Positions 2,780 through 62,080 of a stretch of 64,000 nucleotides of DNA are shown here, piece after piece. The notes under the pieces are model-generated. The model ran no database searches, had not been told where the DNA came from, and saw only the letters and a program-made list of their open reading frames with translations. Position numbers and translations under genes: made by a program. The stretch comes from Octopus vulgaris (lineage: Eukaryota): positions 1,488,001 to 1,552,000 of the forward strand of contig OX597828.1 of the NCBI GenBank assembly GCA_951406725.2, written 5' to 3'. Numbering within the stretch: position 1 is the first letter of the stretch; every line of letters begins with the position of its first letter.

Positions 2780-3165
2780 GTTAATTAAAATCTTAGGGTA
2801 GCAAGAATATTCATCGAAAAATTCTTAGTTACCAGTGGTCTAGCGAGAAAGAAAAAATTAGTCAATAGACTATATATTATTCAGAGAAGAATACAGTGTA
2901 TGTTCAAACACAAAAGAGATACCCGAAGAATAGGATATCTGACTCGCTAGAAAGAGCAGTTAAAACTCCAAGCCACCAATTGTTGTAATTCCGAAAGTGA
3001 TTGGAAAATAAAAACTTTACCTTAATGCTAGACCCTGCAAGGTTTCTGCAGACTTAAATACATACTGAAATAAAATAATTTCAGTATATATCTGGCGCTA
3101 TATCTACCCTATTCGTCGGGTATCTCTTTTGTGTTTGAACGTACACTGTATTCTTCTTTGAATTA
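2780..3165. mobile_element. Non-coding PLE-derived fold-back element in (TA)n; divergent relative of 42659-43598
   Basis: Inverted arms about 2878-2938 / 3100-3165, with (TA)n on both flanks. Minus strand has an HHR 3' half GAAACCUUGCAGGGUC (3046-3031) and shares conserved motifs with the 43 kb element. Confidence 0.7.
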
Positions 3166-3320
3166 TATATATATATATATTACGGAGATGTACTTCCATA
3201 GCGAGTGACTTGATCTGAGATCGTGTGCTGGAACGAAAACAATTGCAGCGTGGAAGGTGCTTATAAGCCATTTAAGAAACATACAAAAACCGTTAGATTC
3301 ACTTCAACATTTAAATTTAA

Positions 3321-5974: not shown

Positions 5975-8390
5975 TTGTGGAAGAGTGAAAGGAAACGTCA
6001 AGAGCAGAAGTGAGCGGGGAAACGGGCATCGGAAGTGACCTGTTGTGAAAAGCGAATTCAGAGAGTGGGCAGATTCTAGCCAGAGATTAAGTAGCGTAAG
6101 CGTTTATGTTCATGCTACAAGTTTTTCTGATCTCTGTGGAGAGTAGTTTTCTCTCTGTTTGAAGTTCGTTATAAGGCAAGAGCGGTTTATTTGCGCCGTT
6201 CCATCTACAAGCTATTTCGGCACGTTGTCCATCTGTTGTGGGGATTTTCTTTTCTTCTACCTTTCTACCGTTGACATTCAACATGACAACGAGGATAAGG
6301 ATTGGTAACGATGTTTTGCGACCGTTTTTCGATGAAGGCCTAGATAAAAAAAGTGAGGCTTGTTTCAAAGCTGCAGGACATACAAGACGTGGCCAGACTT
6401 ACGCTGTATTTGTTGAAATGAATGAAGTGACTCAGCTAAAAGTCGAAAAAGAACGTGGAGGATGCATATGAAAAAATGAGCCTTTAGAGTATACAGCAAG
6501 CAAGACAGGGGAGCATGTTGACGACTAAGTGTGCGAAATAAGCTAGCTAGCTAGTTTTACCGGTGGAGCGATGGAGAGAATTGTGGACCTGGCTTTCGTG
6601 ACTGGATTTCCCGACCATATATCAATGAGGTTGCAGCAATTGCCAGACGATGTCGTTGAGCGATTTGGTAGATAAGACGTGAATATTGACGTAAAACGAC
6701 AAACGTGATATCGAGGCAGCGTTGACGTCAGAGACTAGTAGGATGAAGACGCAGGCGGAAAATAGCGGGAACTAGAGTATGACGGGTTAGGAGAGATGGA
6801 CGTTTAAGGGGCTGTGTTTTATGTGTGGGGTCCACACATGGTCAGAGATTGCAAGGAACCAAAATCTGAAGTGATATGTTACCCTCGTGAACAACCCTGG
6901 CATATAGCGAACTTTGCGAAGAGGGAAGCAAACAGAGGGAAGATACTGCGGTAGTAGCTGCCCGACAATCGCTTAGAGCGGGAGGCCTTGTCTATACGGA
7001 TTGCACAATAATCCTGCTGGCAGTGAAAATGGTTGAGAACTGGAGTGGAAAAACCAGTCTGAGTGCAGAGAAGATAAGGAGTTTAGGTGCAGAGGCGTCG
7101 GCGTAGTGGAACTGGAGGTACAAGGAACGGCGTTGAATATGAAAGTGATTGTTGTCAATGAGGTATTGGTGTCGACGTAGTAATAGGAATGGACGTGATT
7201 CAACGGTTGATTGGCATGGCGGTTGGAAAGACGGGAATGGAATTTGGTCACTGGTGTACCGCGTGCTGTAAGTGTGGAGCAGAGAAAGAAGGCCGTAAGA
7301 TCGACAAAATCGAGTTCAGAGAGAGAGAGAGAGATAAGAGATACTATAGACAAGATCGAAGATGAAAACTTCTAGGCTGAGTTCGAAGCAAACTGGAAAG
7401 TGGGTTACTTCTGGAAGATACCCCTCCCTCCACCCATTTTGAGCAACAGGATGAATTGCTACTGGCACACCCTGAAAAGAGAAGCTAGGAATGAGTAAGA
7501 GGGAGATGGACAGATGGATGGCAGGGGTATTTTAATATTGGGGAAATAGGGAGTGAAGTGTGGTGTGCTATCAATGATGGCTATAGTCCAGCCGACAAAA
7601 AATAAGATTCGATCAGTGCTAGATTTTCGTGAGTTGAACGAGCATATGTCGTGCAATATGGGGAGTAAAGCAGCGGACATCTGTGGGGACACTTTGCGGG
7701 AGTGGAGGCAGATAACAGGGGCGACTACAACCGTCGGTCTAAAGACAGCATAGCTGCACTCCACGTGCCTAAGGAATCGTGGAGGTATCAATTGGTGAGG
7801 TACAAGGGCGGAAAATCCTGTCTGACTTTTACTGGGGTTTGACTTGAGTTCAGGGAAAATGATGGCGAAGGTTCTCAAGGCGATGTTGAGGAAGGTGGCG
7901 AAAGTGGAGCAGGCCAGTAGTTCCTACATTGATGATATCTTGGTAGATGAAAGTGAGGAATTGGCAGAGGAAATTGTGGGTCATCTGAGGAGGTTCGGAT
8001 TGATTGTAAAACCACCGGAAGCTATGGAAGGAAGCACTGTGCTGAAGCTCAAGCTTGAAAGAGTAAAGGAGAACTGGCGTGTATTTCGAAGAGGAAATGA
8101 GATTTTAGAGCTGAGCGAGGACATGAATAGGCAAAAACTGTTCTCAGTTTGTGGGAAACTGGAAGGGTTCTATCTTGTTGGAAGATGACTCTAAACGGCA
8201 TGTAGCTAAATCAAGAGGTAAGCTGGAGGCGGTGAACTGAAGAGAGAAAGTGGGAGAGAATACAGTTGCTATGATGCAAGACGTCTTGGAGAGAGTGAGA
8301 GCGGAGGATCTAGTGAATGGCAACTGGTATGTGTCCGAAACAAAAGAAGGATTGTATGGTGTGACGCGAGAAACATAACGACATGAGTCA
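5975..8390 (+). mobile_element. Ty3/gypsy-like LTR retrotransposon remnant (gag, Zn knuckle, RT, RNase H start)
   Basis: Frameshifted CFMCG-PHMVRDC knuckle at about 6814, IRSVLDFRELN (7553-7753), SYIDDILV (7844-8188) and IVWCDA at about 8351; many lesions. Boundaries are approximate. Confidence 0.85.
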
Positions 8391-9249: not shown

Positions 9250-10340
9250 TTCTGAATATATCGTTTTTAATTGCGTGGGTATTATTCTAAGGCCCTTGTA
9301 ATAGTGTCATTCATGGTGGACGCATTCAAAAGGGGTTTATATTTTGTGATAAAATATGACTTTTTGCTAATGCACTGACTACAGGTCCCTGAATTTATAA
9401 AGGGGAAAAATTCTGAAGCTGGGTTGTTCGTTAGTGGCGCAAACGTCGATGTGTTCCCTGAATGCTATTTATCTGTATTGTTGAATTTTGATCTGGGTTC
9501 TATGTAGAGCCATCCTTTGATGTAGACTGTCTTTGGTTAATACATATATTAGGTTTTCCGAAGCACATGTGAAATGGTTTTTCACTGTAAAACGTTGACC
9601 CTGTTTGAAAGAGAACTCCGATCCCTTCAATTAGGTTGGCGCATATACCACAGTTAGGTCTTCCACAATTTTTACTGACGGCTTCAGTGTTGTTTTCGAG
9701 TGTACTTAGGTTTGTGTTAGGAGACTTTTCATGGATCTGGGTTGTCTCTTGCTCTTTATGATGGTGTGCATTTGGAGGATTAAATTCAGTCTGTGTCTCT
9801 TTTTAGTTGGGGAATGTTCTGGAGGACGGTGTCGAAGGCATCATTGTTAAGGGGTGTGTGTGTGTGGAGATGTATAGTAGAGCTTTTGGTTGTAAATCCT
9901 TCTTTAGTTTGGGACGTCTGAGTGCGTAGATGTTGAGTTGTAGGGCACGTTGGAAGCCTACATCAATTAGTGATGGTGGGTAGTTCCTGGTAATGAGTGT
10001 ATCCTTTAGTTCCTGTAGTCGTGTGACTGGTGCTTGCATTAGAAACTATAGTACATATCCTTTTTGCTAAGTTGAAGGGGATATTCATTCTGGTGTGGCA
10101 TGAATGGAACGGTAGATATTGCTTGGAGTCCGTGAGCTTATAGCATATATCTGTTTCTATTTTGTTGTTGGATTTCTTAATGAGGATGTCGAGGAATGGA
10201 AGTTGTTGATGGTTATATTCCATCGCAAATTGAATGTTTACTTCAAGTTCATTTATAAGTGCTAGAAATTCGTTAAATCTCTCTTTACCTTCATGCCAAA
10301 GAATCAAACAGTCATTCAGATACCTCTTCCAGTTATTTTC
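9250..10340 (-). mobile_element. Penelope-like element (Neptune-type) 3' fragment: RT C-terminus and GIY-YIG region
   Basis: WKRYLNDCLILW, LPFLDILI, YLPFHSCH, NIPFNLAKRICTIVS and RNYPPSLI, then linker CGRPNCGIC and FTCASENLIY on the minus strand. Confidence 0.9.
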
Positions 10341-10620
10341 TATATATATATTCACATACACACACACACACATATATATCTATGTGTGTGTGTGTGCGTG
10401 CGCGCGCGCTTGTGTGTATGCATATGTATATATATGTATATTATTTGCTTCAGTCATCGGACTGCAGCCAAGCTGGGCCATCGGCTCGAAAGGTTTTAGC
10501 GGGGCAAATCGACACTGATATTTATTTTTAAATTGTGGGACTTATTCTAACGTTCTCATATACCGAACCAGTGTGGGAGACAAACACAAACACAAAGGCA
10601 CACACACATAGACACACCCT

Positions 10621-24031: not shown

Positions 24032-25530
<1,499 letters not shown>

Positions 25531-36249: not shown

Positions 36250-39200
36250 CATATTTGACTTTTGCTTTGTATTTGTACAAGCTGGTTCTAAGTCTCACCC
36301 AGAGACATCAAGAGATAACAAGTTAGGAGTTCATGTTGGCGTTATGCTTAGGGTGTCATATATTTGGTTTTGCACATAGTGTTGTTCTAGAGAATGTCTA
36401 AGAAAACAAGATTATGAGTTTGTTCTAGAATTTGAAATTATATAGAAATTTTTTTACGTAGGATATGGGCAGTTACCATGAGCACTATCTTTTGAATTTT
36501 TGCCATTTTGGGGTTTCCTGGTATCTGAGCTAGATAGCAATCAGCGCCTTTTGCTATCATTCCCAGGGTACATATGACAACATGTATTGTTTTAGTCTTG
36601 AAGTGCCACATTTTGCTGATTTCTATTTCAAGATCTTTATATTTGCTCAGTTTTTGGTAGGTCTTGACAGATATGTTTATATCGATTGGGACAGTCATAT
36701 CAATGAGGAGGCATGTTTTTTGTCTGAAGTCTTTTAATATAATGTCTGGTCTATTCGTATCTATCTTTCTGTCAGTTTGAATGGTGAAGCTCCTAAGGAG
36801 TGAGATGTGATGATTTTCAAGCACTGGAGGTAGTTTGTGTTCCCACCAGTTTTTATCATGGGGCAGGACCAGGTTTTTGCAAATTACCCAGTGAATATAT
36901 TGTGCTGCTCTATCATGCCTGTTGAGATACTCTGTAGGCGAAAGAAGACTGCACATGGAGACAACATAATCAATGGTTTCATTTTGTTGTTGACATACAC
37001 GACATGTTGGGCTACTGCCGTTCTTTAATATGTTGGCCTGGTAGTTTCTTGTAGATAGGCATTAATCTTGGGCTGCTATGATAAACCCTTCTGTTTCTGA
37101 TTCTAAGCCAGAGGTCATTAGCCATTGATGGGTGAGAGCTTTGTCAGCATCGGCATTATTCGCTCTCTTTGGGTATTTGCCAATGAGAGGTTTTTCTTGC
37201 CCTTTATCATTCAGAATATCTAAGGCCGCAGTTTTAGCACGGGTTTTCATGCGCTTAGCTTTTTCTGTGCTTGTTTCTAGTACGACTAATTCTGGAATTT
37301 GTTGTATTCAGAATTCCTTTGCCTGTTTTGTTACTGAGTATGATGCTTTCTTGTTTTCATGTTTTGAGACAAGTTTTAACATTTAGCCCTCGGTGCTTTT
37401 CAGGTAGGTGTCTAGGCCAATTGTGGCAATATTCATTGTTAATTCCAGTTGTAAAAATCAACGGTTACTCTCTTTTCTTGGCAGGTAAAGTCGTTCTATA
37501 TCTGCCTTAGGGTAATGCATTCTATGCATTGTGAACAATTTTCGTATTTTTCTGTCAAGATTACATGTTTCAGTAATTGACCAGTTAATGATATTGAAAC
37601 TGTAAGTCACGACTGATATGGCTAAAGTATTGATCGCTTCGATCCTGTTTCTCGCATTCATCTCTGTCTTGAGTATTGCCCTTACCCTGCGATAACATAC
37701 TCTTCTGACCCTTTCCTTCATCACTGAATGTTTGATTCTATCCCCTTCAAATACCCCTAGGTATTTGTAGCTCTCCACTGGTTCTAATTCTTTTATGACA
37801 TGCTGCTGGTCAAGGTTAACGTTAGATGTTTCTGCCGTTTTTCCTTTGATAGAGGTAGCTTTTTCACATTTATCGAGGCCAAATTGCATCCTGATTTCAT
37901 AACTGAATTGTTTAACAATCGCTAGTAAGCCCTGGAGTTGTTGGTCATTTTTTGTAAAGAGCTTTAAATCATCCGTGTAAATGAGATGTTTTATACTTTT
38001 ATCAAACATTTTATTGTGCATCATCGAGCAATTTCGAGAGAGGTATTAAGGCTACACAAAATAGGTGTGGTGATAGAGAGTCACCCGGGAAGATGCCACA
38101 TGAAATTCTTACATCTCCAGCATTAATAAATTCATTGTCACTGTTCGAAGTCAGTGTAGTTGTCCATGATCTCATGCTTACAGACAAAAAGTTTCGCAGA
38201 GTAGGTGCTAGTTTATACATTTCCAGACATTTCTTAATCCAGCAAGGTGGTAGCCTGTCAAAAGCTTTTTATAGTCTATCCAGGCTATCGACAAGTTTTT
38301 GTGTTGTTTGTGACAATCTTCTAAGATAATTGTATTGATGAGTAGATGTTCTTTACAACCATAGGACTCACGTTTTCGTTGGCGTTTCTCATACCGGCGG
38401 ATCCTTTGTGCTTTGGCAAGGATATCTTGCTTTAGCTTTTCTTTTATCTCAGGTAAAGCTTTTTCTGTGATGTTGTATTTGCATACTATTTTTGTTTTCT
38501 TCTTGTTGCTTAGTAGTGTTGATTGTCTACTAATTTCGTTAAGAATCGACAGATCTTTTCTCTTTTTTTCTATTTTATTTTTTGGATATTATTTGTCCAC
38601 AGGGTTTGTTTGGGTGGTGGTACTCCTGTTTGGATGGGCTTGAAGGAGCATCCAGCTTCTTTTGTGGCTGCAGTGGCTGCTGCATATATTATGTCATTTA
38701 GCTCAGTGATATTGCCATTTGTTTCTATAGCTATTAGTTCCGTGACGGCCAGGTTTATGCTATTTATTATTGATGTTGTTTTATTGTCCATTTTGATTTT
38801 GGGAAGGTATAATCGGTGGTCCATTCTGAGATCTGTGGTTTTCAGTTCTTTGATTATTCTCATTTTTATAGTATCATAATCATTAAGTTCCCCTTCACTG
38901 TGTCCCGGTTTTAGATTTGTTTTGCCCTCTTTCTCATTCATATGTTTATCTGTGGTGTTCTGGATTGGTGCTTTTTGTTCATTATTATACATTCCTACGG
39001 TCTGGGTTCGTTTACTTCGTTTTTGTTGGAAATGTTACGTCTATCTTCATGTTTTACTATCTCAGTGTTTATATTATTTGGCATTGTTGTGTGGCTTCTA
39101 TCTACATTTTCCTGATGTATTTTCCCATTTAAATGTTCTATTTCTATTTCTGATATTTTCTTTTTTTGCTTTGAGAATATATATTCGTATGTTAGCTAGT

Positions 39201-42594: not shown

Positions 42595-42658
<64 letters not shown>

Positions 42659-42664
<6 letters not shown>

Positions 42665-43598
42665 TCAATATAGGGTGGCAAAAAATTTCGTAGAATTTAT
42701 TTGCCACCAGCGGCCTAGTGGGAAAAAATTAAATAGTCATAGACCATTTATAAGTTCAACATCACAATCAAGGAATGGCCATAATAGGCCATTCACCCAC
42801 TAGAAATAACAGCCAAAGCTTCAACCGCAAAATAACATTAATTCCGCAAACCAGGAGAAAATTAAAAAAACATTTACCCTGTAATTTCTTATACGATGCA
42901 CCGTTTCATCTATTGTTTAATGGTAAACTAACCTGATTAAATTAAATCAAGCCAATCTTCCACCATGAAACGGTGCATCGTATAAGAAATTACAGGGTAA
43001 ATGTTTTTTTAATTTTCTCCTGGTTTGCGGAATTAATGTTATTTTGCGGTTGAAGCTTTTGGCTGTTATTTCTAGTGGGTGAATGGCCTATTATGGCCAT
43101 TCCTTGATTGTGATGTTGAACTTATAAATGGTCTATGACTATTTAATTTTTTCCCACTAGGCCGCTGGTGGCAAATAAATTCTACGAAATTTTTTGCCAC
43201 CCTATATTGATTAATTATGAATTTTCTGGTTAATTCCGTAATGGAATCGGCGGCTTATATTTGCTGCCGATAAATTTGGCGCGAGTGCGATGATTTGAAA
43301 ATTTTAGGTCAGATATTGCCGAGGCAGGGATAGAGGTGCCTCGTGATAATATCTGCTCGGATCTGGCTGTTTCTTACTGACGAATCTATCGGCCTATGGA
43401 AGATTGGCTTGATTTAATTTAATCAGGTTAGTTTACCATTAAACAATAGATGAAACGGTGCATCGTATAAGAAATTACAGGGTAAATGTTTTTTTAATTT
43501 TCTCCTGGTTTGCGGAATTAATGTTATTTTGCGGTTGAAGCTTTGGCTGTTATTTCTAGTGGGTGAATGGCCTATTATGGCCATTCCTTGATTGTGAT
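42659..43598 (+). mobile_element. Young non-coding retrozyme/mini-PLE: 5' inverted arm plus 1.3 tandem copies of a 485-nt monomer, in (TA)n
   Basis: Inverted arm 42659-42962; direct repeat period 485 nt (ATGAAACGG at 42965 and 43450). Copies differ by about one T, and there is no long ORF. Confidence 0.9.
43370..43474 (+). ncRNA. Intact type I hammerhead ribozyme
   Basis: UUUCUUA-CUGACGA-AUCUAU...AUAGAU-GAAA-CGGUGCAUCG-UA-UAAGAAA; 7-bp stem I, 6-bp stem II and near-palindromic stem III; predicted cut after 43467. Confidence 0.92.
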
Positions 43599-43814
43599 AT
43601 ATATATATATATATATATATATCTTGCCCACTGAGTGGGCAAACAAAAATATGAGACACAACCTAGTGCTTTTTTATGTTGATAAGCCTGGTACTTATTC
43701 TATTAGTTTGTTCTTGTGAAACCAGTAAGTTATGGGGATGTAAATAAATGAACAGCAGTTGTGAAGCAGTGATGAGGGCGAAACATAGAGACAAAGAAAC
43801 ACACATACATTTAC

Positions 43815-51033: not shown

Positions 51034-51091
<58 letters not shown>

Positions 51092-51214
51092 TTAAGCACA
51101 AAGAGGCGAGGCTTAACAGGTCGCCTTACATACAAGAAGGAACAGTCAAAATGTCCAAACCGCAGTTAAGAGCAATTTCGAAGGGAATGAAAAATAACAT
51201 TTACCATGTTTTAC

Positions 51215-51287
51215 AACCGGACCTTAGGTGTTTCGAACTTTAATTAGCAAATAAAATAATTTGCAAGGGGAAGTTCTTATCAGCGTT
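51215..51287 (-). ncRNA. HHR variant (CUGAUAA core)
   Basis: AACG-CUGAUAA-GAACUU...AAGUUC-GAAA-C..G-UC-CGGUU. Confidence 0.55.
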
Positions 51288-51437
51288 ATACGCCAAAACA
51301 TTAACATATAAATTAGAGAGAAAAAAACATGTGTCTCATCCTTCTATATTATAATTTTTCAAATCCTCCGCAGTTTCAATTGGCAGCAAATATAAATTCC
51401 GATTAAACTTCAGAAATTGCTAAAAACATGTCTTAAA

Positions 51438-51603
51438 ATTAATATAGGGTAGGAAAAATTATAGAATTTTTTTCTTTCAGTGACCTAGCATGTATACAAA
51501 ATAAATAGACATATTTTACATATAAATATATTTCTATTGACTTTGTATACATGCTAGACCACTGGTAGAAAAATTTCTATAATTCATCCTACCCTATATT
51601 AAT
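51438..51603. mobile_element. Short fold-back, third member of the 2780/42659 family
   Basis: Arms 51438-51510 / 51532-51603; plus strand reads UCUAUUGACU..GCUAGACCACUGGUAG...CUACCCUAU. Confidence 0.7.
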
Positions 51604-51652
51604 ATTAATATATATACACATATATATGTGTGTATATATATATATATATGTT

Positions 51653-55479: not shown

Positions 55480-62080
<6,601 letters not shown>

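Follow-up and report, generated by a model that had tools for sequence, protein, structure and literature searches.

What is a second structured RNA doing downstream of the hammerhead ribozyme of a short repeat? The question is raised by positions 43061-43205 (+) of the window, the 64 000 nt stretch of DNA analysed here, which belongs to an animal genome of 2.8 Gb that is rich in microsatellites. A first-pass annotation, made from the sequence alone, had reported at this position the motif GGCUGUUAUUU-CUAGUGGG...GGUCUAUGACU...CCCACUAG-GCCGCU-GGUGGCA...UGCCACC-CUA, and had proposed several roles for it, from recognition by a reverse transcriptase (RT) to a conformational switch. The motif is present as described, as are a second copy at 2794-2961 (-), with the CUAGCGAG/CUCGCUAG version of the long stem, and a partial copy at 51533-51597 (+), which is the 3′ half. 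These three are indeed divergent, being members of three subfamilies of one repeat, but the window holds further copies: an inverted full copy at 42660-42837 (-), a 5′ half at 43522-43598 (+) and, on the minus strand at ~51088-51172, the 5′ half belonging to the third insertion. The insertions and the unit from which they are built are as follows.

42657..43598, both strands: family-A insertion (L001) in (TA)n, with head-to-head inverted arms
42657..42962, minus strand: inverted arm, running from u415-485 into u1-236 of the unit and holding the second full motif copy
42983..43467, plus strand: monomer of 485 nt (u1-u485), bounded by successive predicted hammerhead cleavage sites (GUA)
43370..43474, plus strand: complete type I hammerhead, recognized by sequence, with predicted activity
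42967..42989, plus strand: 3′ half of the preceding hammerhead, truncated by the inversion junction
2780..3175, minus strand: subfamily-B insertion in (TA)n
51088..51610, both strands: subfamily-C insertion in (TA)n

The predicted cleavage sites that bound the unit follow GUA at 42982 and A43467, and elsewhere in the genome the tandem period of this unit is 484-485. The complete hammerhead consists of stem I (43370-76/43468-74), CUGACGA (43377-83), GAAA (43452-55), a long stem II and a near-palindromic stem III. The motif had been placed downstream of the hammerhead, which is correct for the 3′ half at 42967-42989, but the complete ribozyme lies one unit on. In the family-A insertion the left arm (-) terminates at a position that we call site 2 and the right arm (+) at site 1. 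The main arm of the subfamily-B insertion stops at site 2 (~2780) and its short inverted arm (3105-3171) at site 1, whilst the subfamily-C insertion has a minus arm with the hammerhead and the domain's 5′ half, ending near site 1, and a plus arm with the 3′ half, ending at site 2. An inverted 5′-truncated copy lies beside a direct copy in 3/3 window insertions. A DNA transposon or MITE was ruled out as the source of the inverted ends, because the arms run to different lengths, the insertions contain tandem units and hammerheads, and the junctions vary between copies.

The repeat is abundant. When the three window copies were used as DNA queries, 1,419, 1,844 and 406 first-look candidates came up, the best 40 of each being scored, and genome-wide patterns had 2,953, 9,939 and 5,975 matches compared with 1, 8 and 13 for reversed controls. 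Family A copies show 99-100% identity to the window and are arranged as tandem arrays; array periods are 484-485, 488-493, 473, 505 and 456. Hammerhead-bearing tandem monomers of 456-505 nt occur in six subfamilies, and the type I hammerhead CUGANGA...GAAA...UH is present with its stems in A, A2, B, F, G2 and K. No conserved ORF was found, the longest AUG ORF having 18-66 codons in six circularised monomers, and the GC content of the domain is 0.33-0.36; an LTR-type layout is absent. The 485-nt element is a non-LTR retrozyme, that is, a non-coding, non-autonomous Penelope-like element (PLE) with thousands of copies in many subfamilies; its self-cleavage and circle formation at the RNA level are predicted from the hammerhead. 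Fourteen runs guessed to be RNA contain 0.30-0.77 of the element's words, and the three that were mapped span 27-29 of 30 bins, figures that speak neither for nor against expression. A metagenome pattern scan gave four matches, none of which scored with our model R1. A highly diverged tandem subfamily with a period of 456, at L154:3272-3876 (-), has partly lost the CUAG-RCCRC core and retains the hammerhead together with P4-like and P5-like elements. A further PLE-type insertion at L296:984-1650, inverted and bearing a hammerhead, has a ~50-nt tail and lies within a 1.6-kb duplication; its GC-rich hairpins differ from the retrozyme domain.

The annotated extent, 43061-43205, stands as the core of the structure, but the domain is larger and takes in both an outer helix and an enclosing stem. 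Its parts are as follows.

43025..43241, plus strand: whole conserved domain in the predicted monomer fold, bounded by a 13-bp stem, 43025-43037/43229-43241
43046..43165, plus strand: outer helix P0, GYRG at 43046-49 with CYRC at 43162-65, overlooked in the first-pass annotation
43071..43161, plus strand: long-range helix P1, 43071-79/43153-61 (9 bp), with predicted stacking on P0
43081..43102, plus strand: hairpin P2, variable in sequence, from folding and pair counts
43130..43140, plus strand: hairpin P4, GGUC-UAU-GACU, from pair counts and held-out copies
43167..43201, plus strand: terminal hairpin P5, followed by CCU, from folding, RNAalifold and pair counts

Both full copies beat all 200 dinucleotide shuffles in folding (z -5.6 and -4.7), and the enclosing stem appears, in two registers, in the minimum free energy structure of 6/6 subfamily copies that are intact on both sides. 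P0 is paired in 149 of 156 cells, with two compensatory positions that have G·U intermediates. The invariant bases of the core are U-CUAG/CUAG-R, CC and CU. At the position of P4, other subfamilies carry AAUC-UUCG-GAUU or CUGA-N4-UCAG instead, and a hairpin forms there in about 21 of 23 held-out copies despite the swapped sequence; a small P0-P1 hairpin seen in single folds showed no covariation in 39 sequences. When the 485-nt monomer is compared with subfamilies B and F, the domain is its best-kept part, conservation being 0.65 in the domain and 0.41 in the hammerhead region for B, and 0.50 and 0.40 for F; against subfamily G2 the domain (0.72) is no better kept than the spacer (0.73). The structure had been annotated as unnamed, and Rfam 15 gave 0 matches over the window at gathering thresholds, the best E-value at 42900-43650 being 2.2, a test that is insensitive to variants because it also missed the hammerhead with its long stem II. 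The domain is not described in the literature that we searched, which lay mostly outside subscription papers, Repbase and supplements.

The evidence for conservation of the fold comes from pairs that change together. The 111 unique copies that are intact across the motif fell into 23 clusters, and 19 representatives were aligned at a mean column identity of 58%; the other four had deletions, duplications or a non-native 5′ part. From the 19 sequences alone, RNAalifold recovered P1 (9 bp), P0 and the base of the terminal hairpin. In a 32-pair model 89.1% of cells pair, compared with 80.4% in shuffled alignments (0/500 as good) and 35-46% in slid controls, and 17 of the pairs show double changes. 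A tree-aware G-test, run with an R-scape-like script and not R-scape itself, placed 3 of 31 pairs at E<0.05 in the proposed set of these 19 sequences, and none in the all-pairs test. A held-out set of 23 new copies, picked by a pattern fixing CUAG only, kept 89 of 92 free outer P1 pairs, whereas 10,000 shuffles averaged 71.3 and never exceeded 85; with Watson-Crick pairs alone the count is 80, compared with 53 after shuffling. The significance given by the shuffles is overstated, because the held-out copies are related. In a 39-sequence set (20 of the 23 new copies, 17 of the 19 old and 2 added), pair 43078-43154 ranks first in the all-pairs test with E=0.02; 1 of 39 proposed pairs has E<0.05, and P0 and the other P1 pairs lie at 0.16-0.35. 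Together, the held-out pairs and this top-ranking pair bear out the annotated covariation of the long-range stem. Cells with G·U number 114 and those with A·C 17, and therefore the fold belongs to the RNA of the hammerhead strand. In the MAFFT alignment the two main clades are out of register at P2, P4 and P5; support for these hairpins and for the enclosing stem comes from per-sequence folding and pair counts, not from tree-aware significance. The conserved, covarying RNA structure is real.

What this structure might do is suggested by the places at which insertions end.

43111..43119, plus strand: end site 1, mode u132 = 43114, with 38 of 81 3′ ends; used at 43598
43211..43222, plus strand: end site 2, mode u236 = 43218, with 38 of 81 3′ ends; used at 42657, in the inverted arm

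No fewer than 76 of 81 distinct family-A-like 3′ ends fall at u129-137 (38) or u229-240 (38), the other five lying elsewhere. The two zones together make up 21 of 485 nt, are spaced 104 nt apart and lie inside the domain, site 2 in a predicted single strand of 25 nt. The 22 5′ ends are scattered (the four at u1 are BLAST artefacts). Among 49 complete insertions, 29 carry two 3′ ends: 24 pair site 1 with site 2, and the remaining 25 comprise 10 with a 5′ end and site 1, 10 with a 5′ end and site 2, and 5 with another position. None pairs site 1 with site 1 or site 2 with site 2, although part of the sample was anchored on the motif and so biased against the former, not against the latter. A subset of 13 insertions collected with a hammerhead-only pattern contained 8 site 1/site 2 pairs and no like pairs, with 21 of 22 3′ ends at the sites. 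In all 24 site 1/site 2 insertions the 104-nt tail is confined to one end.

Seven other subfamilies share both end zones, one just 5′ of P4 and the other 3′ of the ACCC region by 10-45 nt, and one TA-flanked end lies between P4 and P5. Site 1 lies ~9-17 nt from P4 across subfamilies, whereas its distance from the hammerhead varies from ~132 to 165 nt (output read by eye). Exact ends are uncertain by a few nucleotides, and by up to ~10 in the other subfamilies, because both sites are AU-rich. The (TA)n flanks are the target, as for Neptune and Naiad elements. Microhomology alone was ruled out as the determinant of the end sites, since better or longer (TA)-like tracts at u144, u277-278, u334 and u370 are unused as ends. 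Loose (TA)n ends at 43114 were seen too in X15, a DNA-type run that possibly comes from the source sample itself. Of 23 simple inverted insertions (one complex insertion excluded), 12 have arms of which neither contains the other, and therefore both of these arms were templated separately; fold-back, or self-priming, is impossible as the sole source of the inverted arm in these 12 and possible in the other 11. The literature searched, again mostly without subscription papers, Repbase and supplements, describes neither a tail of ~100 nt nor one-of-each pairing for retrozymes.

Two further patterns concern the ends and junctions. Inversion junctions fall at u11-34 (42993-43016) in 12 of 46 cases, just 3′ of the hammerhead cleavage site and over a conserved GGUAAAUGUUUUU tract; this cluster may reflect RT stopping near the cut 5′ end or at the ribozyme, or a sampling bias. 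The sequence ACCC(U) lies 4-20 nt ahead of site 2 in retrozyme units (43199-43203 in the window) and likewise ahead of the distal end in two further PLE-type families (56410-56420; ends of L149, L151 and L154), so on sequence grounds it is possibly a recognition motif common to these families. We take the subfamily B form, ACCCUAA, to resemble the complement of TTAGGG.

The suggestion that the structure is recognized by an RT gains support from these data, because the 3′ ends of insertions sit at two fixed places within the domain in every subfamily examined, and we infer that sites 1 and 2 are RT start positions. The domain at 43025-43241 encloses both end sites, and we consider it probable that it is a docking and initiation element for a PLE reverse transcriptase supplied in trans. 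Under this model, a tandem array would be transcribed, and the multimeric RNA, or RNA cut by the hammerhead and circularised, would fold the domain. As the enclosing stem requires RNA 3′ of site 2, a start at site 2 would be internal. A PLE protein, probably as a dimer and most plausibly from a young Neptune-type family in the same genome, would bind the P0/P1-P4-P5 core, and the bound domain would place one AU-rich single strand at each active site. The GIY-YIG domains would then nick both strands of (TA)n, and sites 1 and 2 would each be primed by one of the two 3′-OH groups. The two cDNAs would extend for unequal lengths round the unit before being joined by microhomology, giving head-to-head arms with a 104-nt tail on a single end. 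A narrower version of the model, in which the domain is a telomerase-RNA-like scaffold that presents two single-stranded template windows 104 nt apart to a PLE RT dimer, a single ribonucleoprotein priming the two strands of the (TA)n break simultaneously, is in our view possible but distinctly tentative.

The main rival explanation sees the fold as general scaffolding for the retrozyme circle, serving stability, ligation or escape from surveillance, with the ends set otherwise, for example by an endonuclease acting on a DNA intermediate. The available text of PMC7229834 predicts a high degree of self-pairing in retrozyme circles, that of PMC8557442 attributes the tail to EN-mediated resolution, the whole monomer studied here folds strongly, and conservation sometimes extends past the domain, as in G2. 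However, the end sites hold their position relative to P4 and P5 across subfamilies that are only 51-58% identical, the excess of G·U over A·C cells indicates RNA of the hammerhead strand, and the genomic ends of the PAc element are reported to be its in vitro RT starts (PMC11167929, available text). We regard a general scaffold as unlikely, if still worth weighing.

We think it improbable that the domain acts as a novel ribozyme, or as a processing signal, that cuts the RNA at sites 1 and 2, with LINE-like priming from the new 3′ ends. A compact multi-helix core with invariant bases, the lack of an Rfam match and two sharp ends are what such an activity might look like, but arms that end at site 2 pass through site 1 intact, and the site sequences vary between subfamilies and are spread over 9-12 nt. 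Independently cut RNAs should also yield like pairs, of which there are 0 in 24, and Neptune elements without the fold show the two-end pattern as well. Protection of the 5′ end of the hammerhead-cut RNA against exonucleases, which the position of the domain ~43 nt past the predicted cleavage site and its junction with stacked helices would suit, seems very improbable: it leaves the 3′ insertion ends inside the domain unexplained, no pseudoknot pair is among the top covariation scores, and retrozyme monomers are reported to circularise (PMC7229834, available text).

An IRES-like element serving the uncapped hammerhead product is hardly credible, and is not supported, since no ORF downstream is conserved. 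An AUG does follow site 2 in 7/7 subfamily copies, 12-31 nt past ACCCU, and self-cleavage can, according to the available text of PMC13725137, promote cap-independent translation. However, the ORFs that begin at those AUGs are unrelated and have 3-28 codons (the one at 43217, annotated as 7 codons long, has 18), the circularised monomers hold nothing longer than the short frames given above, and the AUG could be left over from the start of a parental ORF, given that the ORF1 of a Neptune element has its AUG within the 3′ strand of an enclosing stem. The least credible reading is a switch between P1 and a GGUCUA/UAGRCC pairing, which is possible, as annotated, in the 43061 copy (6 bp) and in several related subfamilies (5 bp), but which has 0 compensatory changes, is equalled by 500/500 shuffles, keeps its first two pairs in 17/38 and 20/39 sequences (that is, they are broken in about half of the 39), has a pairing probability of 0.00 in the monomer, is replaced by unrelated sequence at the hairpin in other subfamilies, and competes for UAGRCC, all of which P1 and P0 already occupy.

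Docking of a PLE protein in trans raises the matter of its partner. A PF01541 search gave 6,136 GIY-YIG candidates, the best 150 of which were scored and 40 loci fetched. Many of the candidates fall within intact frames of 781 aa with RT, CxxC and GIY-YIG, which are 96.5-99.5% identical among eight copies, and the CxxC linker, as described in the available text of PMC8557442, would class this family as Neptune-type. This family is the younger of two autonomous RT and GIY-YIG families (e.g. L144, L149), both of which have minimal hammerheads and (TA)n ends at two sites, spaced about 40 and 33 nt. In L144 a predicted 13-bp stem encloses both end sites (z -3.6, from fold prediction alone), and its pLTR (C6:133343000 +, ~710-820) has the ORF1 AUG within the 3′ strand of this predicted stem; if sequestered there, it could couple translation with template use.

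The CUAG core is absent from the two local Neptune families, and comparison of their pLTRs with retrozyme units gave only short reverse-strand matches. No autonomous carrier of the fold was found with model R1 in 44 sources, mostly GIY-YIG/PLE loci, where the matches inspected were separate retrozyme insertions; because of this, we infer the Neptune partnership from the common target and end pattern. There was no RT and GIY-YIG ORF within a retrozyme unit, tblastn matches near motif loci being separate insertions. Among individual candidates for an autonomous carrier, L201, L249, L262 and L296 were ruled out as neighbouring separate insertions, and L108/L271 as a 5′-truncated Neptune with its own 3′ end, abutting site 2. 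The L108/L271 junction has no intervening (TA)n, as would follow from nested insertion or template switching.

The window contains other repeats and element-like fragments. A decayed Neptune-like RT-GIY-YIG ORF fragment at 9385-10346 (-) has 47-49% identity to the L144 protein. At 56450-56885, in (TA)n, is a perfect inverted stub of another PLE-type family; it has a minimal hammerhead-like core, and one of its arms bears a tail of ~35 nt. Near-perfect inverted repeat pairs adjoin microsatellites at 15169-15536/16833-17200 (368 nt) and 58863-59044/61187-61368 (182 nt), and 7826-8188, 24408-25277 and 36438-38588 resemble, by eye, fragments of LTR pol and non-LTR RT/endonuclease ORFs.

If the narrower, scaffold version of the model is correct, twin priming on a structured RNA would explain the tail, the inverted arms and the recruitment of PLE enzymes by retrozymes that lack sequence homology to them. 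The domain bears on how Penelope-like RTs recognize RNA, how animal retrozymes are mobilised and how inverted PLE insertions acquire a one-sided tail. Dozens of subfamilies supply natural compensatory variants of the ~215-nt domain, its two start sites are predicted, and the same genome offers a young candidate enzyme; this puts a mutate-and-rescue assay of priming within reach, as well as a structure of the complex. An RNA signal that is portable and directs internal priming on two strands would also touch on the link between PLEs and telomerase.

Retrozymes, the tail and internal initiation are already known, and the element described here is best placed by comparison with each. As in the animal non-LTR retrozymes described in the available text of Cervera and de la Pena (PMC7229834) and of a 2026 preprint (bioRxiv 10.64898/2026.07.22.740005), non-coding, low-GC tandem units each carry a type I hammerhead and reach thousands of copies; autonomous PLEs co-occur, and PLE-dependent mobilisation has been proposed. 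Units are given as 170-400 nt in the 2020 paper and as 51-972 nt in the preprint, and those found here (456-505 nt) are unlike the first-described non-LTR retrozymes (150-450 nt) but fall within the preprint range. A second covarying domain and fixed insertion ends are absent from the descriptions in the available text of both.

The closest parallel in vitro is the Poseidon element PAc. According to the available text of PMC11167929, a study of a single element, with its signal mapped to about 150 nt, the PAc protein is a predicted dimer that starts internally at two sites matching genomic ends, requires RNA 3′ of the starts and extends both target strands. The retrozyme likewise has two end sites downstream of a hammerhead, an AT-rich target and a predicted need for 3′ RNA, but a multi-helix covarying domain instead of a single AC-rich stem-loop. 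A tail on a single end of inverted insertions is a PLE feature in the available text of PMC8557442 and PMC3846280, at 30-40 nt compared with 104 nt here, where it lies in a non-coding element and not in an ORF. For inverted junctions PMC3846280, as far as its available text goes, favours self-priming, whereas one-of-each pairing and independently templated arms were counted here.

The local Neptune PLEs (L144, L149) share with the retrozyme the (TA)n target, an upstream hammerhead and two end sites, and in L144 both sites lie within a predicted enclosing stem with the AUG near or in its 3′ strand; unlike the retrozyme, these elements encode RT and GIY-YIG, have tails of 33-40 nt and lack the CUAG/P0-P1 core. 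In a wider frame, the domain may be likened to the scaffold of telomerase RNA and the 3′ stem-loops of LINEs and SINEs, structured RNAs that hold a short single-stranded template for an RT. PLE RTs are placed as sister to TERT in the available text of PMC8557442. The domain has no sequence or Rfam similarity to these RNAs, and differs from them in that the whole unit is copied, from two start sites rather than one.
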